This document shows, piece after piece, positions 8,018 to 63,814 of a stretch of DNA of 64,000 nucleotides. Position numbers and translations under genes: made by a program. Below the pieces are notes generated by a model that ran no database searches, was not told the origin of the DNA, and saw only the letters and a list, made by a program, of their open reading frames with translations. Within the stretch, counting starts at the first letter, position 1; every line of letters begins with the position of its first letter. The stretch lies in sequence record PZ386977.1, one strand, 5' to 3'. Source of the stretch: a phage.

Positions 8018-9118
8018 TTACGCTGTGAAGATTTTATCCCACATCGCAACAACTGCATCTCGGTTATACTTCTTCCATACTGCTTCAGCACGTTTAACTC
8101 TAGCTTCGTATGTGTCAGTGAATTCTAATACAGCTTTTGTGTAAAGCGCAACTACTTCTTTCTTAGGAGTAGAGGAATCAATTTCTACACGCACAGTATC
8201 TGGGTCATATTCGAATGTCGCGTGCGGATAATCCTTAAAAACTAACTGAATCACAGGGACACCTTTAGAGATGGCTTCAATAGAACTATTCTCTACTGTA
8301 CCTGTGTCAGGACACGTATTGATAAGTGCTTTAGCTGTTTTAAGACGTTCCATGATTTCACTGTGTGGAGCATCAATAATAACAGGATATTTAGCTGGCG
8401 GTGCCCATTTACTAGGACAGTATCCTGCACCGTTTTCGCCTAGTGCTTTAATCGCTTCAAGAGCAACATCAGTACGACGCATCTTAGTGTCATAACGTTG
8501 AGCACTAATAATCAGATCAGTCGCTGGAAGAACTTCAGGTTTCTCATTCAAACAAATAACCGGATAATCTTCGGCTTCAAACAACGGATTTGCTCGCCAA
8601 TAATCATAATCAATTTTGTCAGTCAGACCTGAAGTCATATAACAATATTTGCGTTCAAATTCACGGAAGGCTTTAGTAGGAGCATAACTCTTGCCACCAT
8701 TCTTATGAATTTGAATAGTCTGGTCCCAAATTTGAACAATGCCACGAGATACCGGTTCAAATGGTGTTGCCATAAAATTCTTATGAACTTTAGAGAGACC
8801 TGCGTCTTTAATTGCCTGAACGGTTAGTTTGGTCGGTTCCATTGTAACAACGAAATCGTACTCATTGATGCCGGCTAGTTCAACAATCTTACGAGCCATA
8901 GTATAACTCATACCTAGACTGAATTTAGTCAGACGACCAACAGGATGATGATTAACCTTCCAGTCACCAAACGTGTCATTATCAAAGCCGATATAATCAA
9001 TATCAGCACCGATGGACACAAGATATTTCAACACATTTAAATGTACCGCTTCAAGACCACCTTGTACACGTTCTGGGTTAAATGGGACTGCGCGAGATGG
9101 GATAAACATAACTTTCAT
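8018..9118 (-). CDS. GT-B fold glycosyltransferase (GT4-like), candidate DNA hmC glycosyl/arabinosyl-transferase
   Basis: 366 aa; N-terminal MKVMFIPS...ERVQGGLEAVHLNVLKYL and C-terminal TGTVENSSIEAISKGVPVIQ resemble GT4 family motifs; occupies the rIIA-39 interval. Confidence 0.7.
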   Translation of the reverse strand: MKVMFIPSRAVPFNPERVQGGLEAVHLNVLKYLVSIGADIDYIGFDNDTFGDWKVNHHPVGRLTKFSLGMSYTMARKIVELAGINEYDFVVTMEPTKLTVQAIKDAGLSKVHKNFMATPFEPVSRGIVQIWDQTIQIHKNGGKSYAPTKAFREFERKYCYMTSGLTDKIDYDYWRANPLFEAEDYPVICLNEKPEVLPATDLIISAQRYDTKMRRTDVALEAIKALGENGAGYCPSKWAPPAKYPVIIDAPHSEIMERLKTAKALINTCPDTGTVENSSIEAISKGVPVIQLVFKDYPHATFEYDPDTVRVEIDSSTPKKEVVALYTKAVLEFTDTYEARVKRAEAVWKKYNRDAVVAMWDKIFTA

Positions 9119-9129
9119 AATTAAGCCTT

Positions 9130-9162
9130 ATTAAAATTAAAATGAAGCTCCCGAAGGAGCTT
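9130..9162 (-). terminator. rho-independent terminator after gene 39
   Basis: AAGCTCC-TTCG-GGAGCTT hairpin followed by CATTTTAATTTTAAT on minus strand. Confidence 0.55.
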
Positions 9163-10978
9163 AGGACATCCATTCTTTACGAAGTTCTGAATCATCACCC
9201 AACAACATTTCAAAGAGTTCTTTCCAATTTTCAGGAAGTTTAACTACGTCGTACACAGGGTTCTGAATCATTTCACGATACTCTGACTTTTCAAGGGAGC
9301 CTAATCCCTTGATGTATCGAATACTATGCTTAGGCAGCGTATCTTTAGCTTCTTCATACTCAGCTACAGTATAAAACCATTTTTGAGTTTTGCCAATTTG
9401 TGCAATAATTACAGGTGTTTTAACAAAGCGAATACGTCCTTGTTCAAACAATTCAGGCCAATTACTAAAGAAAGCAAGCAAAGCCGGATAGATACTTCCA
9501 AGGCCGTCATGATCGGCATCGGTCATAATTGCAATATTACGATAGTTCGTATTCTCTGCCTTTTCACCAAGAATAAGACCTGTGATAGCACAGATATCGA
9601 ATAACTCTTTGTTCTTCATCATATCAGCATATGACATACCCCAGCTATTCATCACCTTACCACGTAATGGGAATCCACCGTGTAGTTCACGGTCACGAAC
9701 ATCAATGAGATATCCAATCGCCGAATCACCTTCTGTTAAGAACAATGTCGTATCTGCATCTTTACCACATTGGTTAGCTTTAATATGCTTATGAACCTTA
9801 GCTTTAGTTGCCTTTTTAGCTGCTTTAGTTTCTGCAGCCTTTTCTGCTGCCAATTTACGAGCTAATGCTGCTTCAACAATAGGCATAATCAAAGCTTCGT
9901 TTTTAAGAAGTGCCTGAGCAATTTTCTTAGCATCTAATTGGATATGATTACGAATATCACCATACGTTGACGTTAAACGTTCTTTAGTCTGAGAATCAAA
10001 ACGCATGTTGCTCATGTCTCTAATAAACATCAACATTGTGAGGCATTCTTTAACACGAGCTTTAGTGACTTCAATACCCTTATATTTCTTTTTAATACCA
10101 GGCAAAAGATGTTCGCAGATATCGTCCATTACACATTCAACATGATGTCCACCATTTTTAGTATGGATGTTATTCACATAAGTTAAATGACGGAAGCCAT
10201 CTGGTGATGTTGTGAATGCTATAGAGACTTTATCATTTTCTTGAATGATATTATCTTCACCAAATTGTTTAGCAAATCGTTTAAAATTACCATCAACCTT
10301 TTTACCATTAAATGTGAACTTGATATCAGGATAAACGACTGCCAATGTTTGAAGTCGGTCTAAAGTAATATCTAAATAAATTTGAGATAAATTATGCTCT
10401 TCAAATGAAGTGAAATCAGGAGTGAAGATTACTTTAGTGCCTTTACCTTTAGATTTCTTAGAAGACCATGATTTGTTTTCCATTCCGTTTGAACAGTTAA
10501 CAGTGATTTCATTTTCGCCATCTGACGTGATGCCTGTAAACAACGTAGAGAAGATATTAGTTAAACTACTCCCGACGCCGTTCATACCACCAGTCTTGCG
10601 TTCAGAGTCATCACCAAAGTTACCACCGGCTTTTGGAATAGTCCAGGCTGCTACAGGTCCAGGAATTTGTTCACCCGTTTGGTCGGTAACTAAACCTTGA
10701 GGAATACCGCGTCCGTTATCTTCCACCGAAACTTGGTTATTTTTAATTTGCACATCAATTTTATTTGCAAACTTAAATGATGTACGAATAGCTTCATCAA
10801 CCGAGTTGTCAATAATCTCATCGATTAATTTAACCAGACCTGGAACATATTCAACTTGTTGATATTTACCAAACAAAAAACGCTCATGGGCTTCTTTGGC
10901 CGAAGAACCAATATACATGCCACTACGTTTCTTAATATGTTCTACATCTGACAATACCTTAATTTCATTTTTAATCAT
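9161..10978 (-). CDS. 39: DNA topoisomerase II large subunit (GyrB-like ATPase), single uninterrupted ORF covering T4 genes 39 and 60
   Basis: 605 aa; N-terminus MIKNEIKVLSDVEHIKKRSGMYIGSS and GHKL ATPase motifs (VEDNGRGIP); continuous frame with no bypass-like gap. Confidence 0.9.
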   Translation of the reverse strand: MIKNEIKVLSDVEHIKKRSGMYIGSSAKEAHERFLFGKYQQVEYVPGLVKLIDEIIDNSVDEAIRTSFKFANKIDVQIKNNQVSVEDNGRGIPQGLVTDQTGEQIPGPVAAWTIPKAGGNFGDDSERKTGGMNGVGSSLTNIFSTLFTGITSDGENEITVNCSNGMENKSWSSKKSKGKGTKVIFTPDFTSFEEHNLSQIYLDITLDRLQTLAVVYPDIKFTFNGKKVDGNFKRFAKQFGEDNIIQENDKVSIAFTTSPDGFRHLTYVNNIHTKNGGHHVECVMDDICEHLLPGIKKKYKGIEVTKARVKECLTMLMFIRDMSNMRFDSQTKERLTSTYGDIRNHIQLDAKKIAQALLKNEALIMPIVEAALARKLAAEKAAETKAAKKATKAKVHKHIKANQCGKDADTTLFLTEGDSAIGYLIDVRDRELHGGFPLRGKVMNSWGMSYADMMKNKELFDICAITGLILGEKAENTNYRNIAIMTDADHDGLGSIYPALLAFFSNWPELFEQGRIRFVKTPVIIAQIGKTQKWFYTVAEYEEAKDTLPKHSIRYIKGLGSLEKSEYREMIQNPVYDVVKLPENWKELFEMLLGDDSELRKEWMS

Positions 10979-55833: not shown

Positions 55834-56138
55834 TATAATGTTCTCTCAAATTTGTGGAAGCATTTACGACATTTCAATTTCAAGTTATCAGTGGTCCAGT
55901 TAACCAGTTGGACTTGGATAGTTCCACATTCCGGGCATGGATGTTTTGCTGCCGATTTGGCAGCATTTTCACGTCGTTCAACCATTTTCATTATTTCGTT
56001 CCATGCCGGAGGAACGAACTCTTCTTCACCGTGGATTTTATCTCGCTGAACAAATTCAATCTTTGAACTATCGTCAATAAACTTAACCAAGCCATGATTA
56101 GTGCTCATATCAATATCCTCTAAAAGACGTAGTTTCAT
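55833..56138 (-). CDS. zinc-ribbon protein (101 aa)
   Basis: C-terminal CPECG...CRKC. Confidence 0.5.
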   Translation of the reverse strand: MKLRLLEDIDMSTNHGLVKFIDDSSKIEFVQRDKIHGEEEFVPPAWNEIMKMVERRENAAKSAAKHPCPECGTIQVQLVNWTTDNLKLKCRKCFHKFERTL

Positions 56139-57088
56139 TATAACACCTCAATGGCATTTCGTAAACCGTCCGCTTTCGCATTCAGAGCTTTTAACGATTT
56201 AGTTTGTTCTTTAATCTGGGCTTCGACTTCTTTCAGACGAGATTTGAGGTACTCACGTTCTTCGCTCAAGTTGTCAACTTTTTCTACTTTAGGTTCTTTA
56301 ATAGTCTTAAGTTTATACTCGTTAGGGTTCTTCAACTTAATTCGGGTACGAGAACTATATAACATTGAACCGTTATCTTCGGATTCGTCGAACGTTTCAA
56401 CAACATCCATAGTCTCTAACAATGTAATAAGTTTATAAGACAACGAACGAATAGTTTTGTTGTGCTTATTAATTTCTTCGGCTTTCATGGTACCGAGATT
56501 ACGTGAGTAGTAATAAGGAACCTGGATATCAATTGATAATGATGCGTTACCATTACCAGTTGGTTTGAATACTGCAGTAACCCAATCTTTAACATGAACT
56601 TTATTTGTACGGCCATCACCGCCAGTGAATAATTTACGAGAATGTTTAAAAAGCATATTCACTTGTTTATTGAATTCACAAGCAAATTTATCAGCAAATT
56701 TAGTTTCAGGAATGGTAGATAACCAATCAGCCAAATGAGTCTTTTTAACATCATTAACAATAGTGAATTCAACCAAATCGGTTTTAGATGTCACAGATTT
56801 AATAAAGCTCGGCTTCATAAAGTTTTTAATGTTATCGCGAGCTACAGTAGAAGATAATAAACGAGAACGTTTGAACCATTGAAGCAGGGTCCCTAATGAA
56901 TGAGAATACGCATTCTGAGTATCTTTACAGATATGATTTTCTTGGCCTGTGTATGTACCAAAATCGCGAAGAATACCACTTACTACATCTCGGTGCGGAA
57001 CATCAAATCCTAGTGCACCAGAAGCGCGCTGAGCATGAACGTTAGCGATAAGACCGGCAAAGTATTCAATGTAATGTGAACGTGTCAT
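56138..57088 (-). CDS. hypothetical protein with C-terminal coiled coil (316 aa), tandem gene A
   Basis: ATG ORF with own early promoter; C-terminal heptad-like segment. Confidence 0.55.
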   Translation of the reverse strand: MTRSHYIEYFAGLIANVHAQRASGALGFDVPHRDVVSGILRDFGTYTGQENHICKDTQNAYSHSLGTLLQWFKRSRLLSSTVARDNIKNFMKPSFIKSVTSKTDLVEFTIVNDVKKTHLADWLSTIPETKFADKFACEFNKQVNMLFKHSRKLFTGGDGRTNKVHVKDWVTAVFKPTGNGNASLSIDIQVPYYYSRNLGTMKAEEINKHNKTIRSLSYKLITLLETMDVVETFDESEDNGSMLYSSRTRIKLKNPNEYKLKTIKEPKVEKVDNLSEEREYLKSRLKEVEAQIKEQTKSLKALNAKADGLRNAIEVL

Positions 57089-57116
57089 AATATTTTCCTC
57101 TCGTTAAGATAGATTC

Positions 57117-57146
57117 ATTATACTCCGACCATCCTTGGTTGTAAAC
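57117..57146 (-). promoter_or_regulatory. early promoter GTTTAC-18-TATAAT (CCAACCATCCTTGGTTG cassette)
   Basis: same cassette as 14394-14423. Confidence 0.6.
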
Positions 57147-57150
57147 TATT

Positions 57151-58110
57151 TTATGATTTTAATGCATTCATTGCGTTAAAAAGTTTAGAATACTGCAACT
57201 GGAGATTCGTTACAACACTTTGAGCATCACGAAGCTTAGCTTGTGCTTTGTCAAGTTCAACAGACAGTTGGTCCATAGTGACCTTGATTTGATTGTAATG
57301 GTAATCTTCGACCGGAAGAAGGTCATTAGAAACATTTAGTTTTACTGCAGACAGTTTGCACACATTTGGCGAACCTTTAAACATTGATTTACCCGAAGTA
57401 GAATAAGCACTTAGGACTTCGGCCTGTTCAATTGGGGTCCCAGTAAGCGATGCTTCAAACAATGCATTTTCCTTTTTAAGATTTTGATAGTATTCAGAGT
57501 CTTTGTGCCACCATGGCGCAGGAACCTTTTTACCAATAGATACACGAGCCTGGATAGCGATATGGCCCTTATTCTTGATAGGGTCGACAATATTAAGCTC
57601 ACGAGAATAAATTGCTTTAATCTGGTGGATATTATCACCTAAAACTTCCAACGCTTGGTGGAATACACGAGCAACGTTATCATTCTTAGGTTTATACGTA
57701 AGAGTGAACTCATTCTCACTGATAACCATGATTTCCAACTTATCGTAAGTATATTTCAAATGTTTCATGTTAATTGCTTGAGGACGAATACGAGAAGCAA
57801 TGGCCATCAGATTGTTAAGGTTATTCCGGAACTGCTTAGCGAAATATTGTCCTTCACCGCCAATACAAAAATTACGAAGTTTCTGTTTGGCTAGTAAACG
57901 GCTGAACTCACCATTTTTAATGAACTCTTTAACGGGTGTGTTAGTAACGCATTCAAATTGAGTAAACGTACGAGAATTAATCCCATAATACGAACAGATT
58001 TCCTCAATCTCTTCAGGAGTCTTTACAGGCATACGGATAGGATTAGGTTCTGGGGTATATGCGTTCGAGGTAAATTCTTTGATAAGTTCTCTACGTGTAA
58101 TAAAAGCCAT
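57151..58110 (-). CDS. hypothetical protein with C-terminal coiled coil (319 aa), tandem gene B
   Basis: ATG ORF with own early promoter. Confidence 0.55.
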   Translation of the reverse strand: MAFITRRELIKEFTSNAYTPEPNPIRMPVKTPEEIEEICSYYGINSRTFTQFECVTNTPVKEFIKNGEFSRLLAKQKLRNFCIGGEGQYFAKQFRNNLNNLMAIASRIRPQAINMKHLKYTYDKLEIMVISENEFTLTYKPKNDNVARVFHQALEVLGDNIHQIKAIYSRELNIVDPIKNKGHIAIQARVSIGKKVPAPWWHKDSEYYQNLKKENALFEASLTGTPIEQAEVLSAYSTSGKSMFKGSPNVCKLSAVKLNVSNDLLPVEDYHYNQIKVTMDQLSVELDKAQAKLRDAQSVVTNLQLQYSKLFNAMNALKS

Positions 58111-58136
58111 TTTATATTCCTCATGTTGAAAAATTT

Positions 58137-58166
58137 ATTATACTCCAACCATCCTTGGTTGTACAT
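58137..58166 (-). promoter_or_regulatory. early promoter (ATGTAC-18-TATAAT), same cassette family
   Basis: TTATACTCCAACCATCCTTGGTTGTACAT. Confidence 0.55.
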
Positions 58167-59161
58167 CATTCCTTAAGAAGTTTTACTACCTGAATAAGAT
58201 TAGCTCGTTCTGTTTTATTTTTACCGTTTAAGCCTGCTAATCGTGAGATTTCATCGTCAGTTTGTTGAATAGTTACATTAAGTTCATTAATCAAAGCTTC
58301 AAAGTATTTGATTTGCTCAGCATGTTTTGATTCAAATTTCTGAACCGGAATAACGTCTTGGTTTAGTTCGTCAATAAGGTCTTTAAGAGCATCTTCTTGG
58401 TTGATATCATATTCAACTTCTTTTATTTCTTCAACGAGCTCGTCTTTATATCTAACGTCTTTTAGTCCTGGTGCTGGTCCTGAAATCTCTTCTTTAAGAG
58501 TACAAACATACCCAATACGGTATCCAGTGCCGTCTCGCTTGATATCAACTTCGTCGATAAATCCACAATGTTTAAGTCCAGAGCCGATTATGTCAAAATA
58601 TCCTTGACGTCGTCCTTCAAACGTTACACGAACTACTAAGATAGTTTTGCCACCAACCTTTTGAAGCTCACATTTATAAAAGTTTGTTGAACCTGAATAA
58701 CGTGGATGAGTTTTAAAGTTCATCTGACGATCTAGGCCCATTTGTAAACGCGCTGTTACAGCCATAAAACGTGTTTGGTTCTCGTTAAGATGAGCAACGA
58801 TCCATTTCAAAGGCATTTTACACTGTTCACGACCGAACAAATCAGTACGTCCTAGATTACGCAGGATGTTGTTAGAGTTAATCATCGACAGAACGTTAAG
58901 TTTATTCAGCGCGCTGAAGATTCCATCAGCCATTGATTTTCCATAACCTTTACACGCTTTAATAAGTGCTCGTGGCAGATTAGTATAGATTTCAGACGGC
59001 ATATGAAAATCAAATTTACTAGTCAGTAATTGATGAACTTGGATAGCAATTTGCTCATAATTAAGTGCTCTGCGATCGTTATGGTCTTTAAACCACACTT
59101 TAATCTGTGAAGCACATAAACCGTTAATTTCATGTTTTACCGCATCAGATGTAATGCTCAT
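58166..59161 (-). CDS. hypothetical protein with C-terminal coiled coil (331 aa), tandem gene C
   Basis: ATG ORF; degenerate copy of the promoter cassette upstream (about 59195-59225). Confidence 0.55.
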   Translation of the reverse strand: MSITSDAVKHEINGLCASQIKVWFKDHNDRRALNYEQIAIQVHQLLTSKFDFHMPSEIYTNLPRALIKACKGYGKSMADGIFSALNKLNVLSMINSNNILRNLGRTDLFGREQCKMPLKWIVAHLNENQTRFMAVTARLQMGLDRQMNFKTHPRYSGSTNFYKCELQKVGGKTILVVRVTFEGRRQGYFDIIGSGLKHCGFIDEVDIKRDGTGYRIGYVCTLKEEISGPAPGLKDVRYKDELVEEIKEVEYDINQEDALKDLIDELNQDVIPVQKFESKHAEQIKYFEALINELNVTIQQTDDEISRLAGLNGKNKTERANLIQVVKLLKE

Positions 59162-60235: not shown

Positions 60236-61216
60236 TTATTTCAGTAAAGTTACTTCAGAGATTTCCTCCCAACCATCTTTATCAGTTGAAATAAAATCTG
60301 CTACATAAAGAGCCGTACGTAATGATACATTGCGAAGACGAGATACGTTAGCCTTCATCCAGGACAATGCTTTGTACGTTTCAGCATCAGTCAAGCCACG
60401 TTTCTGCATCATGTCAGTAGATAATATTACATCTTCAACTCGAACCATAATCTCTTCATTAGAGTGTACTCCAAGATCGAGATATACTGAACGAGATACT
60501 AAAGCTTGAAGGTGAGGAGCAAGTTTCGAACCACGTTCTAACTCTTTATCGATATCAACGTTTGTAATGAAAACGATAGTACCTTCAAACTCAAATTCTT
60601 TATCGATACCCTTATCATCAAGATAAGATGATGCAGTGCTCCAGCAAACTTTGCGTTTATCACCGGTATCTAATGCGGCTTTAAGAAGGTTCAGGATGTC
60701 CATATCCGAGAATACGTCAACGTCGTCGATTAAGAGAACGCTGTCTGCATCACGGTTGAGCCAAAGTTGTTCGTAAAGGCCAATACCAGAGATTTTACCA
60801 TTAATGCTTTTGTATTTGATGAAACCATTATCATTAGCACTATTAAGTGCTTTATCCAGAGAATACGTCTTACCAATACCGGCTGCACCTGAAATAATGA
60901 GTGAACGAATTTTGCCATCGATAATGCCATTCGTCATCATGTTCATTACTTTAAAGCGTTTGTTGATACGAGTTTTCATATCTTCAGTGCTTTCAACAAC
61001 TGCAACTGGTGTTGTCTCAACTCCTTCCATTACGATGTCTGATTTGAAGACCCATACTCCACGTTCAGAACCATCAATCATAACGAAAATTTTACCATCA
61101 CCTAAGTGGGAACATTCAGGATTAAGCTTTGCTGGGAACCAGGTCTTTGTGGCAACATAAGATCCAGAGATTTCGTTATTACGATAGATACCTTTTTTGA
61201 TTTGAACGTTGAACAT
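60236..61216 (-). CDS. P-loop ATPase (AAA-like) with N-terminal extra domain
   Basis: Walker A GAAGIGKT and Walker B VLLIDDVD; start trimmed to ATG after the promoter (MFNVQ) with GGAGAA RBS. Confidence 0.6.
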   Translation of the reverse strand: MFNVQIKKGIYRNNEISGSYVATKTWFPAKLNPECSHLGDGKIFVMIDGSERGVWVFKSDIVMEGVETTPVAVVESTEDMKTRINKRFKVMNMMTNGIIDGKIRSLIISGAAGIGKTYSLDKALNSANDNGFIKYKSINGKISGIGLYEQLWLNRDADSVLLIDDVDVFSDMDILNLLKAALDTGDKRKVCWSTASSYLDDKGIDKEFEFEGTIVFITNVDIDKELERGSKLAPHLQALVSRSVYLDLGVHSNEEIMVRVEDVILSTDMMQKRGLTDAETYKALSWMKANVSRLRNVSLRTALYVADFISTDKDGWEEISEVTLLK

Positions 61217-61254
61217 TTTATTCTCCAATTTACTCATTTCGTTTCGATAGGTCT

Positions 61255-61283
61255 ATAATAACATATCCTAAAAGCATGTACAC
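61255..61283 (-). promoter_or_regulatory. early promoter (GTGTAC-17-TATTAT)
   Basis: upstream of the ATPase gene. Confidence 0.45.
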
Positions 61284-61314
61284 TACTTTTTTTAAAATAT
61301 TTTAACCCCCTAAA

Positions 61315-61330
61315 GGGACCCGAAGGTCCC
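61315..61330 (-). terminator. hairpin, weak terminator candidate
   Basis: GGGACC-CGAA-GGTCCC perfect hairpin; only short T-run on minus strand. Confidence 0.35.
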
Positions 61331-61335
61331 CACAT

Positions 61336-61602
61336 TTACTTATCGCACTTAGCAACATAATTAGGCATATCACAGAATACAGAGTGAGTAACTACTCTGC
61401 CCTTTGACCATGCTTCAGTTGCTTGTCCAGCCGTGCTATTAATATAGCTTGATTTGATATTCTCAATACCCTGAGAATGTGAAGCATTTACCGAACCATT
61501 GGAAGGCCCAGAAGACTGGTTACCACCAGCTCCTGCACCCGTGGTAGCACCAACAGAGAACGCCATCATTACTGCGAATAAACCAATTACTAATTTTTTC
61601 AT
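61336..61602 (-). CDS. small secreted protein (88 aa) expressed from a late promoter
   Basis: signal peptide MKKLVIGLFAVMMAFSVGA; Gly/Ser-rich linker; conserved Cys pair; TATAAATA about 33 nt upstream. Confidence 0.5.
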   Translation of the reverse strand: MKKLVIGLFAVMMAFSVGATTGAGAGGNQSSGPSNGSVNASHSQGIENIKSSYINSTAGQATEAWSKGRVVTHSVFCDMPNYVAKCDK

Positions 61603-61633
61603 ATTTACCTCAAGTGAATGGTTATTTATCTAT

Positions 61634-62623
61634 TTATTTATAGTAAGAATTATGATTTTCGAGATAGACTTGCTCAAGGAAATCATCCCAGAAACTCATA
61701 TCTACTTTTTGTTGCATACCGTTCTTAGCGGCTTGTTCTGATGCTTGTTCAACTTGGTCAACGATATCTTCTAGGAATTCTTGTACAGTTTTAAACGTAT
61801 GTTTACCAAGCTTAACATCGAGAATAAATGGAGCATCCTGAAGCGGGTAAACCAGGTCGCCGGTTTTGTAAATTTCCAATAATTGAAGTCCACCACGACA
61901 TGCATGACTCAATGCTTTCCAGTCAATACCTTCGTTAGCTTCCGCCTTACGAGCACGTTCACCATAGTTCTCTTCCAGTTTAACCAGGATGGCATTGAAC
62001 TCTTTATTGGTTAACGTGTCTTGGAATTTACGGTCTAACAGATTATAGAATGTTTGCTTACCTGTTTTCTCGTTTTCGGTTTCAACCCATGAAGCAAATT
62101 CACCTACAGGCAGAACATTCTTCATATGTGATAAACGAATTACTGCACCATTATCAAAGTATTGTCCCCATTCATTAGAACGTTTAAGGGCTTGACGAAG
62201 AACAGCCAGTCGAGAACCCTTGACACCGTATTTAGAAGCTTGCTTACGGACATACCCTAAATAAGATTTCATGTTAGTGGTATAGAAACGAGACCTGTTA
62301 TCTTGAATATACTTCCATACATCAGGCAAATCAGATTTAACTACTAGACTTGGTGGAGTGTGAAGCATATCTAATGCAACAGTTTCACCATCCGCAGCTA
62401 GTTTAAAGAAATATTTGAGACTATACAACTCATGGTCCACGTCGTCTTTTGTGTTCTTAGAAGATGTGTTATTCGTGTTCTTGCTCATATGTTCTTTAAC
62501 GTTACCTGTCAAGATATCACGAGCATGAGGGACATAAATTTCTTTAAAATCAACGTCAGATTCAGGAGTAGATGTTCCATAAAGGTGGCTACCAAAGTAG
62601 CTTTTCATAATTGTTTTCATCAT
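61634..62623 (-). CDS. Pol-beta superfamily nucleotidyltransferase (329 aa)
   Basis: GS-x10-DxD motif (YFGSHLYGTSTPESDVDF) plus downstream acidic DVDHE; C-terminal helical region. Confidence 0.6.
   Translation of the reverse strand: MMKTIMKSYFGSHLYGTSTPESDVDFKEIYVPHARDILTGNVKEHMSKNTNNTSSKNTKDDVDHELYSLKYFFKLAADGETVALDMLHTPPSLVVKSDLPDVWKYIQDNRSRFYTTNMKSYLGYVRKQASKYGVKGSRLAVLRQALKRSNEWGQYFDNGAVIRLSHMKNVLPVGEFASWVETENEKTGKQTFYNLLDRKFQDTLTNKEFNAILVKLEENYGERARKAEANEGIDWKALSHACRGGLQLLEIYKTGDLVYPLQDAPFILDVKLGKHTFKTVQEFLEDIVDQVEQASEQAAKNGMQQKVDMSFWDDFLEQVYLENHNSYYK
61635..61642 (-). promoter_or_regulatory. late promoter TATAAATA
   Basis: exact octamer on minus strand upstream of ORF 61336..61602. 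Confidence 0.45.
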
Positions 62624-63093
62624 TTAGCCTTATATTCAAGAGTAGGACAGACTTTTTCTTTACGAGCTTTAAGGTATTCACTTATTAATGATTTCTTACG
62701 TTCAATAGGCTCAAGTCCATTTTTAATTCGTTCTTGGTTTTGCGCAATGAGCTCAATTTCTTTATAATATTTTCTGTCGTTATATTTGTCTAACAACCAA
62801 GACGGACCAATTACCAACCCGGTAGCAATAAAAGCCATGACTGCTACAATTAAAATGCCTACACCAATTGAGGCTGGAACTAATGTCCATAGACTGCTAA
62901 AAACAAAGAATTTAGTTAAAATTTCGTGGCCAAAGATTGTGACTGCTGCTAAAATCGCAAATCCAATAATTGAAACAGCCAATACCGGGATTAACGTTTT
63001 CCAAAAATAAGCACACAACGTTTTCGGACGATTCCATGTACTATTGAACGCGGCATAAATTTTAAAGTGCCAAGAGTTTTCATTGATAATCAT
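62620..63093 (-). CDS. membrane protein (157 aa)
   Basis: three predicted TM helices; translationally coupled to the nucleotidyltransferase gene. Confidence 0.5.
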   Translation of the reverse strand: MIINENSWHFKIYAAFNSTWNRPKTLCAYFWKTLIPVLAVSIIGFAILAAVTIFGHEILTKFFVFSSLWTLVPASIGVGILIVAVMAFIATGLVIGPSWLLDKYNDRKYYKEIELIAQNQERIKNGLEPIERKKSLISEYLKARKEKVCPTLEYKAK

Positions 63094-63102
63094 AATAATT
63101 CC

Positions 63103-63633
63103 TTATTTCAAAGTTGGGATAATAGAATCGAGATAAGCTTTAAGAGCAACTGCTTCATCTTTGTCTAATGTAACGATATGTTGACGAAGGTCATCAATTT
63201 GACGAATAACTACAACATCGCCATCTTCATAAGAAGGATTAACGCCTAGGACTGTTGTATAGTCAGGGCGGTCCTGATTTGTAATAAAAGCATTACGGCA
63301 TTTAGCCCATTGAAGTTTGGCCTTTTTGGCTATTTCAGATTCCATTAATTCTTTCACCTTAGTGACGAATGTTTTCCAATTATTGATAGAAAGGCATTCA
63401 TCTTCTGTTTCGATATTAACCCCACTATAAAGACCGTGATAAAAACGAACTTGAAGGTCTTCATCGATGTTAATTACAGATGCATGGCCTGGCGGATTGA
63501 GTTTCAAAATCTTGTCCAGTTCCATAGGAAGAATAGTAACAGAATCATCTTCTTGTGTCAGAACATACACATAACCACGTTTTTCGATACATAAATCACC
63601 AAACAACTCGGTTGTTTCAATTACAATTTTCAT
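63103..63633 (-). CDS. hypothetical protein (about 176 aa, start trimmed to ATG)
   Basis: ORF-track start is TTG; ATG (MKIVIETT) 4 codons downstream. Confidence 0.45.
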   Translation of the reverse strand: MKIVIETTELFGDLCIEKRGYVYVLTQEDDSVTILPMELDKILKLNPPGHASVINIDEDLQVRFYHGLYSGVNIETEDECLSINNWKTFVTKVKELMESEIAKKAKLQWAKCRNAFITNQDRPDYTTVLGVNPSYEDGDVVVIRQIDDLRQHIVTLDKDEAVALKAYLDSIIPTLK

Positions 63634-63634
63634 A

Positions 63635-63814
63635 TTATTCACCAATTAAAGTTTCAACAAAATTCACCAAATCATTCAGACAAGCATCAACCTGTTTTTC
63701 ATAAAAGTCTTCGTTATCATTTACTGCATGATAAGCTACATCATTCAAATCTGAATCGGCTTCACGTAAGTTACGGATAAGTTCCATCAATTTATTAGCT
63801 TGTTCACGGGTCAT
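63635..63814 (-). CDS. hypothetical small acidic protein (about 59 aa)
   Basis: ATG ORF MTREQANKLMELIRNLREADSDL...; below ORF-track cutoff. Confidence 0.35.
   Translation of the reverse strand: MTREQANKLMELIRNLREADSDLNDVAYHAVNDNEDFYEKQVDACLNDLVNFVETLIGE

Follow-up and report, generated by a model that had tools for sequence, protein, structure and literature searches.

We analysed a 64,000-nucleotide stretch of phage DNA (sequence record PZ386977.1, hereafter the window), the end of which carries, on the minus strand, four open reading frames (ORFs) encoding a membrane protein, a nucleotidyltransferase (NTase), a small protein predicted to be exported, and an ATPase. The NTase is the ortholog of bacteriophage T4 NrdC.11 and very probably a member of the RlaP family. 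The reading of its in vivo role that we moderately favour is that of an RNA (tRNA) end-repair accessory working with the phage polynucleotide kinase/phosphatase (PNK) as well as RNA ligase 1 (Rnl1), possibly directed at damage by nucleotide-excising anticodon nucleases. A preliminary description of the same stretch, made from the sequence alone, had treated the four genes as one accessory module; we conclude instead that they are syntenic neighbours and not one machine. The region is best explained as the nrdC.10–nrdC.11 end of the hyperplastic nrdC–mobD segment, in which four independently distributed accessory genes are held by synteny.

The window derives from the nrdC–mobD region of a Mosigvirus, an RB69-like T-even phage, and the 2.9-kb stretch that holds the four genes has Megablast matches of 97–98% identity in many Mosigvirus genomes (638 phage records in all). 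The NTase is 78% identical to T4 NrdC.11 (NP_049709, annotated 'nucleotidyltransferase') and the ATPase is likewise 78% identical to T4 NrdC.10 (NP_049708), in both cases over the full length and with the same domain assignments. The two genes lie in the same order and orientation as in T4, between nrdC.9/nrdC.8 and mobD.1, which is also the arrangement in annotated Mosigvirus genomes. The preliminary description had been unable to make an assignment to a T4 gene; given this identity and synteny, that non-assignment was wrong. Both T4 genes have long been annotated, nrdC.10 as an AAA ATPase and nrdC.11 as a COG3541 nucleotidyltransferase already in 2006 (PMC1524935).

The NTase carries the catalytic motif of the Pol-beta superfamily (G[GS]-x9-13-DxD followed by a third conserved carboxylate) as G11-S12-x10-D23-x-D25, with D63 as the third acid. 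Its match to the Pfam family RlaP (PF10127) scores 48.6 bits, where the cutoff is 23 (E = 1.1e-12, model positions 20–145 of 249), and in PHROGs the protein falls in phrog_388, labelled "nucleotidyltransferase"; NCBIfam and PADLOC scans returned zero matches for any of the four proteins. The family is large: a threshold of E <= 1e-3 gives 3256 cluster representatives and one of E <= 1e-30 gives 752, with mostly full-length alignments. An initial homolog search yielded only T-even sequences of ~98–100% identity, which are useless for conservation analysis, and diverse homologs were obtained from representatives of 50%-identity clusters followed by a profile-seeded search. In the resulting alignment of 93 homologs (34–52% identity), G11, S12, G16, S22, D23, D25, D63, Y132, K236, R243 and G273 are invariant. 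They include the three catalytic aspartates, on whose conservation the preliminary description had let the assignment stand or fall, and three positions within the helical domain (Y132, K236 and R243). A second, independent set of 78 homologs gave the same picture of conservation, and all 78 match RlaP above the cutoff. The protein is probably an active NTase. Its gene opens with two tandem ATG codons; the second is the start codon in T4 NrdC.11 and in most of the nearest homologs in the databases, which have 328 amino acids.

An AlphaFold2 model of the NTase (predicted local distance difference test score, pLDDT, 90.9) combines an NTase domain with a helical domain and a long C-terminal helix (residues 309–328); the helical C-terminal domain contains a three-stranded beta insertion (residues 177–201). 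This bears out the earlier proposal of a Pol-beta-type enzyme with a helical C-terminal region, as do the RlaP match and the invariant carboxylates. The two-domain layout, compared by description only, agrees with that reported for the PfRlaP crystal structure (PMC12776372). In structure searches the C-terminal domain is matched by HEPN-like helical bundles, with Foldseek in agreement.

RNA repair was first discovered in T4, and nucleases of the RloC type, which excise a nucleotide, have been proposed to overcome T4 repair in this way. The RlaP family already has a name, a predicted role in RNA repair and a recent biochemical characterisation in bacteria. The Pseudomonas enzymes, encoded between rtcB and rtcA, add one or two nucleoside monophosphates to the 3'-OH of RNA but not of DNA, prefer Mn2+ and accept all nucleoside triphosphates (NTPs) as well as dATP (PMC12776372, a 2025 preprint). 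On a nicked-tRNA mimic they favour the 3' end of the 5' half over the acceptor end, they partly restore aminoacylation of a tRNA missing one anticodon-loop nucleotide, and the authors of that work proposed RlaP as an antidote to "smart" ribotoxins, RloC among them (PMC12776372). RloC excises the wobble nucleotide (PMC2610378, PMC3458546), and repair of RloC-cut tRNA by T4 Pnk and Rnl1 gives mostly products that lack it (PMC3458546). T4 NrdC.11 itself was named as an RlaP member in the 2025 preprint and placed in cluster 5 of the similarity network (PMC12776372).

To the distant Pseudomonas enzymes can now be added the NrdC.11 subfamily itself, which we find in bacterial neighbourhoods of PNK, Rnl1, RtcB and Ro60 genes. 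We collected 84 loci encoding NrdC.11-like proteins (27–52% identical) outside the T-even phages, 80 from bacteria, archaea or metagenome-assembled genomes and four from metagenomic phage-like contigs, and searched them by tblastn, within a radius of 8 kb, with T4 PseT, T4 RnlA and representatives of RtcB, Rnl1 and Ro60. A PseT-like PNK, an Rnl1-type ligase, RtcB or Ro60 lies within that distance at 16 of the 84 loci, mostly close by and on the same strand; when only loci flanked by at least 3 kb on each side are counted, the proportion is 10/48. Clustering of all neighbouring ORFs revealed no dominant partner (the commonest cluster occurs at 8/84 loci), and the signal emerged only when RNA-repair genes were pooled, with RtcB, T4-Rnl1-type ligase and Ro60/TROVE among the recurrent neighbours. 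Three loci, for example, carry compact cassettes: NTase-PNK-Rnl1 on a contig binned as a Bathyarchaeota metagenome-assembled genome (L011, 80–3626), NTase-Rnl1-PNK (L086, 1135–3999) and PNK-NTase-RtcB (L026, 6401–10945). These amount to a complete T4-style RNA repair set together with RlaP, outside phages. On one of the phage-like contigs (L003, 285 kb), a gene with a weak Pfam Metallophos match (8960–9481) lies 20 nucleotides 3' of the RlaP homolog, and the metallophosphoesterase it encodes may be an RNA end-healing partner.

Among phages, the distribution of NrdC.11 tracks that of Rnl1 and not that of NrdC.10. Plain counts of the records per host genus that encode each protein (NrdC.11/Rnl1) are 641/637 for Escherichia, 295/287 for Klebsiella, 83/83 for Shigella, 75/77 for Aeromonas, 69/69 for Acinetobacter and 56/56 for Enterobacter. 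NrdC.10, by comparison, is found in 149 Klebsiella records, half the NTase count, and in 121 Vibrio records, twice the NTase count. Rnl1 is encoded in Mosigvirus genomes that share the nrdC.10–nrdC.11 region, where it is 67% identical to the T4 protein. In jumbo phages the distribution of RlaP has been reported to mirror that of RNA ligases (PMC7824862).

What NrdC.11 acts on, how many nucleotides it adds and what role it has in vivo we infer as follows. D23, D25 and D63 would hold the two metal ions used in catalysis, and the RNA end and the NTP would sit in the cleft that separates the NTase domain from the helical domain. During infection, PseT would heal the broken ends of tRNA, NrdC.11 would refill nucleotides lost to nucleotide-excising anticodon nucleases such as RloC, and Rnl1 would seal the break after refilling; NrdC.11 would thus extend the phage tRNA-repair pathway. 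The protein is an obvious candidate for the phage answer to RloC-type nucleases, and the long-standing question of whether T4 counters nucleotide-excising anticodon nucleases is directly testable with nrdC.11. With regard to the functions listed in the preliminary description, an RNA- or tRNA-modifying enzyme is supported and an anti-defence role is plausible.

Several observations weigh against this interpretation. An RNA-repair neighbour was not found by tblastn within 8 kb at 68 of the 84 loci. In T4, nrdC.11 (at 55 kb) lies ~80 kb from pseT and rnlA (134–137 kb), so the repair link in T-even phages rests on co-distribution, which could reflect shared Straboviridae ancestry alone. We found no RNA ligase gene adjoining the NTase gene in the window, and none within 5 kb of it at the two loci examined in jumbo or KVP40-like phages. 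The RlaP model covers only residues 4–138, the C-terminal half with its beta insertion being specific to the subfamily, and the assayed enzymes sit in network cluster 1a, whereas NrdC.11 sits in cluster 5 (PMC12776372). For no phage RlaP, T4 NrdC.11 included, has an activity been reported. Searches of the PDB copies did not turn up the PfRlaP structure, and the closest solved structure to the model is Hailong HalB, an oligodeoxyadenylate synthase (PDB 9dbh). Finally, T4 remains viable on laboratory hosts after deletion of nrdC.11–mobD.3 (PMC9825161), which fits an accessory role but supplies no positive phenotype.

The enzyme might act on RNA 3' ends in some other way, rebuilding trimmed tRNA 3'-CCA ends or controlling the decay of host or phage RNAs by tailing them. 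A C-terminal domain peculiar to the subfamily, with its beta insertion, could alter the choice of substrate, and the separation of the phage gene from pseT and rnlA would be in keeping with such a role. We nevertheless consider it unlikely, though with an appreciable share of the probability. The bacterial neighbours of this same subfamily are healing and sealing enzymes (PNK, Rnl1 and RtcB) and Ro60, and therefore indicate repair of broken RNA, and on a nicked-tRNA mimic the preference of the assayed RlaP is for the 3' end of the 5' half over the acceptor end (PMC12776372). The fold searches showed nothing like CCA-adding enzymes or poly(A) polymerases. There is no Pfam match to models of either, and the only structural matches of this kind are Cid1 and CutA, with Foldseek E >0.2 and a template modelling (TM) score of ~0.1.

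RNA end repair must also be weighed against activities suggested by the fold and the superfamily. Since HalB is the closest solved structure and RlaP enzymes accept dATP, the NTase could be imagined as a HalB-like oligonucleotide synthase making an oligodeoxyadenylate-type decoy or replacement signal that keeps Hailong-type membrane effectors off, with the coupled membrane protein perhaps resembling HalA. This support is at the level of fold only, and we judge the idea very improbable. HalB and the ANT(4') kanamycin/aminoglycoside NTases (PDB 1kny, 6nlt) are 8–15% identical to the NTase with no relationship at the profile level; the family profiles miss HalB among PDB sequences even at E = 10, and PADLOC is silent. 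Searches of PDB sequences with the NTase, the ATPase and the membrane protein, as single sequences and as profiles, gave nothing significant and detected neither HalB nor HalA. The partners and genomic contexts of HalB and ANT(4') also differ from those of the NTase: the pairing of a HalB-type NTase with a conserved HalA transmembrane effector was not found, the membrane protein matches none of the solved chains in sequence and is not conserved as a partner, and a Hailong-like partnership is rejected on the rarity of a multi-span membrane-protein gene adjoining the NTase gene, which occurs at only 4 of the 84 loci. In addition, the assayed RlaP needs an RNA primer and stops after one or two additions (PMC12776372). 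A signalling-nucleotide synthase of the CD-NTase, cGAS or OAS kind, which the preliminary description had also listed, or an NTase of the MNT/MenT toxin–antitoxin type, is extremely improbable. Both would share the Pol-beta superfamily and the GS...DxD motif, and there is weak structural similarity to MNT and HEPN domains (ranks 4, 7 and 15; Foldseek rank 35). However, cGAS, CD-NTase, OAS and CCA-adding enzymes are all absent from the structure matches listed, and the NTase shows neither the cGAS-like fold nor the match to a CD-NTase model, usually with an effector gene, that defines the former group. Likewise we did not find the combination of a minimal NTase with a HEPN or antitoxin partner, or the Rx4-6H motif, that marks MNT-HEPN and MenT systems.

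That the four genes act as one module in anti-defence or host takeover is quite improbable. They are adjacent and co-oriented, the stop codon of the membrane-protein gene overlaps the start of the NTase gene, and Tevenvirinae, Klebsiella Jiaodavirus-type phages and Acinetobacter Twarogvirinae all retain the order membrane protein, NTase, ATPase; this conservation is, however, what synteny within one family would yield. The phage records encoding each protein number 1568 for the NTase, 1312 for the ATPase, 1264 for the membrane protein and 103 for the exported protein, and none of the 84 NTase loci outside the T-even phages carries any of the other three genes. An Ackermannviridae phage, Stenotrophomonas phage DLP_6 and jumbo phages have the ATPase but not the NTase, and in KVP40-like, Nanhuvirus and Biquartavirus phages the ATPase gene is found at another genomic location. 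T4 has NrdC.10 and NrdC.11 with neither of the other two genes at the locus. Since the phyletic distributions differ in this way, we take the supposed module to be a block of independent accessory genes kept by synteny, with NrdC.10 and the two small proteins as unrelated neighbours of NrdC.11. A single operon is also made less likely by the candidate late box and trailing hairpin of the exported-protein gene and by a separate promoter-like site before the ATPase gene (Table 1).

Table 1. Features of the nrdC.10–nrdC.11 end of the nrdC–mobD segment (positions in the window)
Feature	Position	Strand	Length	Basis
AAA+ ATPase, T4 NrdC.10 ortholog	60236..61237	-	333 aa	
Promoter-like site 5' of ATPase gene	61255..61282	-		consensus scan and sequence reading
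GC-rich hairpin GGGACC-UUCG-GGUCCC	61315..61330	-		sequence
Predicted exported protein	61336..61602	-	88 aa	ORF, phrog_2243, hydropathy
T4-type late promoter box TATAAATA (candidate)	61635..61642	-		exact match
RlaP-family (PF10127) Pol-beta NTase, T4 NrdC.11 ortholog	61634..62623	-	329 aa	
Membrane protein	62620..63093	-	157 aa	ORF, phrog_944, hydropathy
MobD.1 / y05I ortholog	63103-63645	-		strong Pfam matches T4_y05I_N and T4_y05I_C

The ORF listing confirmed all four genes, at the end of the window, where the preliminary description had placed them. Upstream genes in the window correspond to nrdC.3, nrdC.5-like, nrdC.6-like, nrdC.8 and nrdC.9, and the downstream gene is mobD.1. Compared with T4, the window phage has the additional exported-protein gene, which has no T4 counterpart, between nrdC.10 and nrdC.11, and the membrane-protein gene occupies the slot that in T4 is filled by the homing endonuclease gene mobD. 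Many deposited T-even genomes label the NrdC.10 and NrdC.11 orthologs 'thioredoxin', which looks like an error spread from the gene names; a Pfam scan found no similarity to thioredoxin in the NTase or the ATPase.

The ATPase has, as was proposed earlier, Walker A (GAAGIGKT, residues 117–124) and Walker B (LLIDDVD, 168–174) motifs and an extra N-terminal domain. Its true start is likely Met8 (61216), giving a protein of 326 amino acids, as a GGAG Shine-Dalgarno sequence is present there and T4 NrdC.10 and annotated relatives begin at this position. In an alignment of 53 homologs, Walker A G117–T124, Walker B D171, D172 and D174, the sensor-1 residue N226, R249 and the lid residue R307 are invariant. 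In the AlphaFold2 model (pLDDT 89) a five-stranded N-terminal beta domain (residues 9–71) is joined by a disordered linker to an AAA+ core that carries a helical lid. The protein thus combines the Walker motifs, sensor-1, arginine finger/sensor-2 and alpha-beta-alpha core with helical lid that characterise AAA+ proteins, with Pfam AAA matches that are all below the curated cutoffs. Comparison with the MoxR (NorQ, CbbQ), NtrC, DnaA/ORC/Cdc6 and RFC clades gave no clear preference for any of them. The family is essentially restricted to phages (1401 proteins), and its jumbo-phage members lack the N-terminal beta domain. Its genomic positions vary. DLP_6 has it near clamp-loader, regA and polymerase genes, and in other Straboviridae it adjoins replication or topoisomerase genes, the latter in KVP40-like and Nanhuvirus phages; in a Biquartavirus it lies upstream of asiA. 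NrdC.10 is a separate, generic and probably oligomeric AAA+ ATPase.

The membrane protein had been described as a three-span protein coupled to the NTase. The coupling is seen as an ATGA overlap between its TGA stop codon and the ATG of the NTase gene, and the hydropathy of residues ~25–102 indicates two to three hydrophobic spans, followed by a charged C-terminal tail. T4 mobD (an HNH gene, T4 56429–57208) likewise overlaps the start of nrdC.11. The protein belongs to phrog_944 (3e-52), and its tblastn matches include ICP1 and Pseudomonas phages. Its gene fills the slot 5' of nrdC.11 in many T-even phages, the family is widespread in phages and occurs with or without the NTase, and no homolog was found in the 40–60 kb region of T4.

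The 88-amino-acid protein has a signal-like hydrophobic N-terminus (MKKLVIGLFAVMMAFSVGA), a linker rich in Gly, Ser and Asn, and two C-terminal cysteines; it matches phrog_2243 (5e-38, unknown function) and is confined in tblastn searches to its 103 phage records, mostly of Mosigvirus. It is predicted to be exported and expressed late, in line with the preliminary description. The late box TATAAATA (61642–61635) overlaps the NTase stop codon, 33 nucleotides 5' of the ATG of the exported-protein gene, and is followed by a GAGG ribosome-binding site. Three matches to this box occur in the window against seven expected by chance, an unremarkable count, and only its position supports the late-promoter call. 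Five nucleotides past the stop codon of the same gene lies GGGACC-UUCG-GGUCCC, a perfect 6-bp stem with a UUCG tetraloop, succeeded by a T-rich stretch and overlapped by a terminator-like site in our scan; it is likely to be an RNA 3'-end stabiliser or a terminator parting the upstream genes from the ATPase gene. The site 5' of the ATPase gene is sigma-70-like, with TGTACA and TATTAT separated by a 16-nucleotide spacer, an extended -10 TG and a MotA-box-like TGCTT overlapping the -35 element; such matches occur at chance frequency in the region, and the site may be a middle or early promoter. An Rfam scan of the whole window gave no match at gathering thresholds, which together with the small number of late-promoter boxes fits a region of mainly early and middle genes.

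Elsewhere in the window, three successive proteins of ~320 amino acids (56138–59161, minus strand) are the counterparts of T4 NrdC.3 (56% identity), NrdC.5 (25%, Pfam DUF7235) and NrdC.6 (30%). No mutual similarity between them was detectable by BLASTP, and by eye their C-terminal ends look coiled-coil-like. Sequence divergence in this part of the region is much faster than in nrdC.8, nrdC.10 and nrdC.11. On the other side of the four genes, the MobD.1 ortholog is only 45% identical to T4 MobD.1, and its Pfam domains are labelled 'putative transcription factor'.

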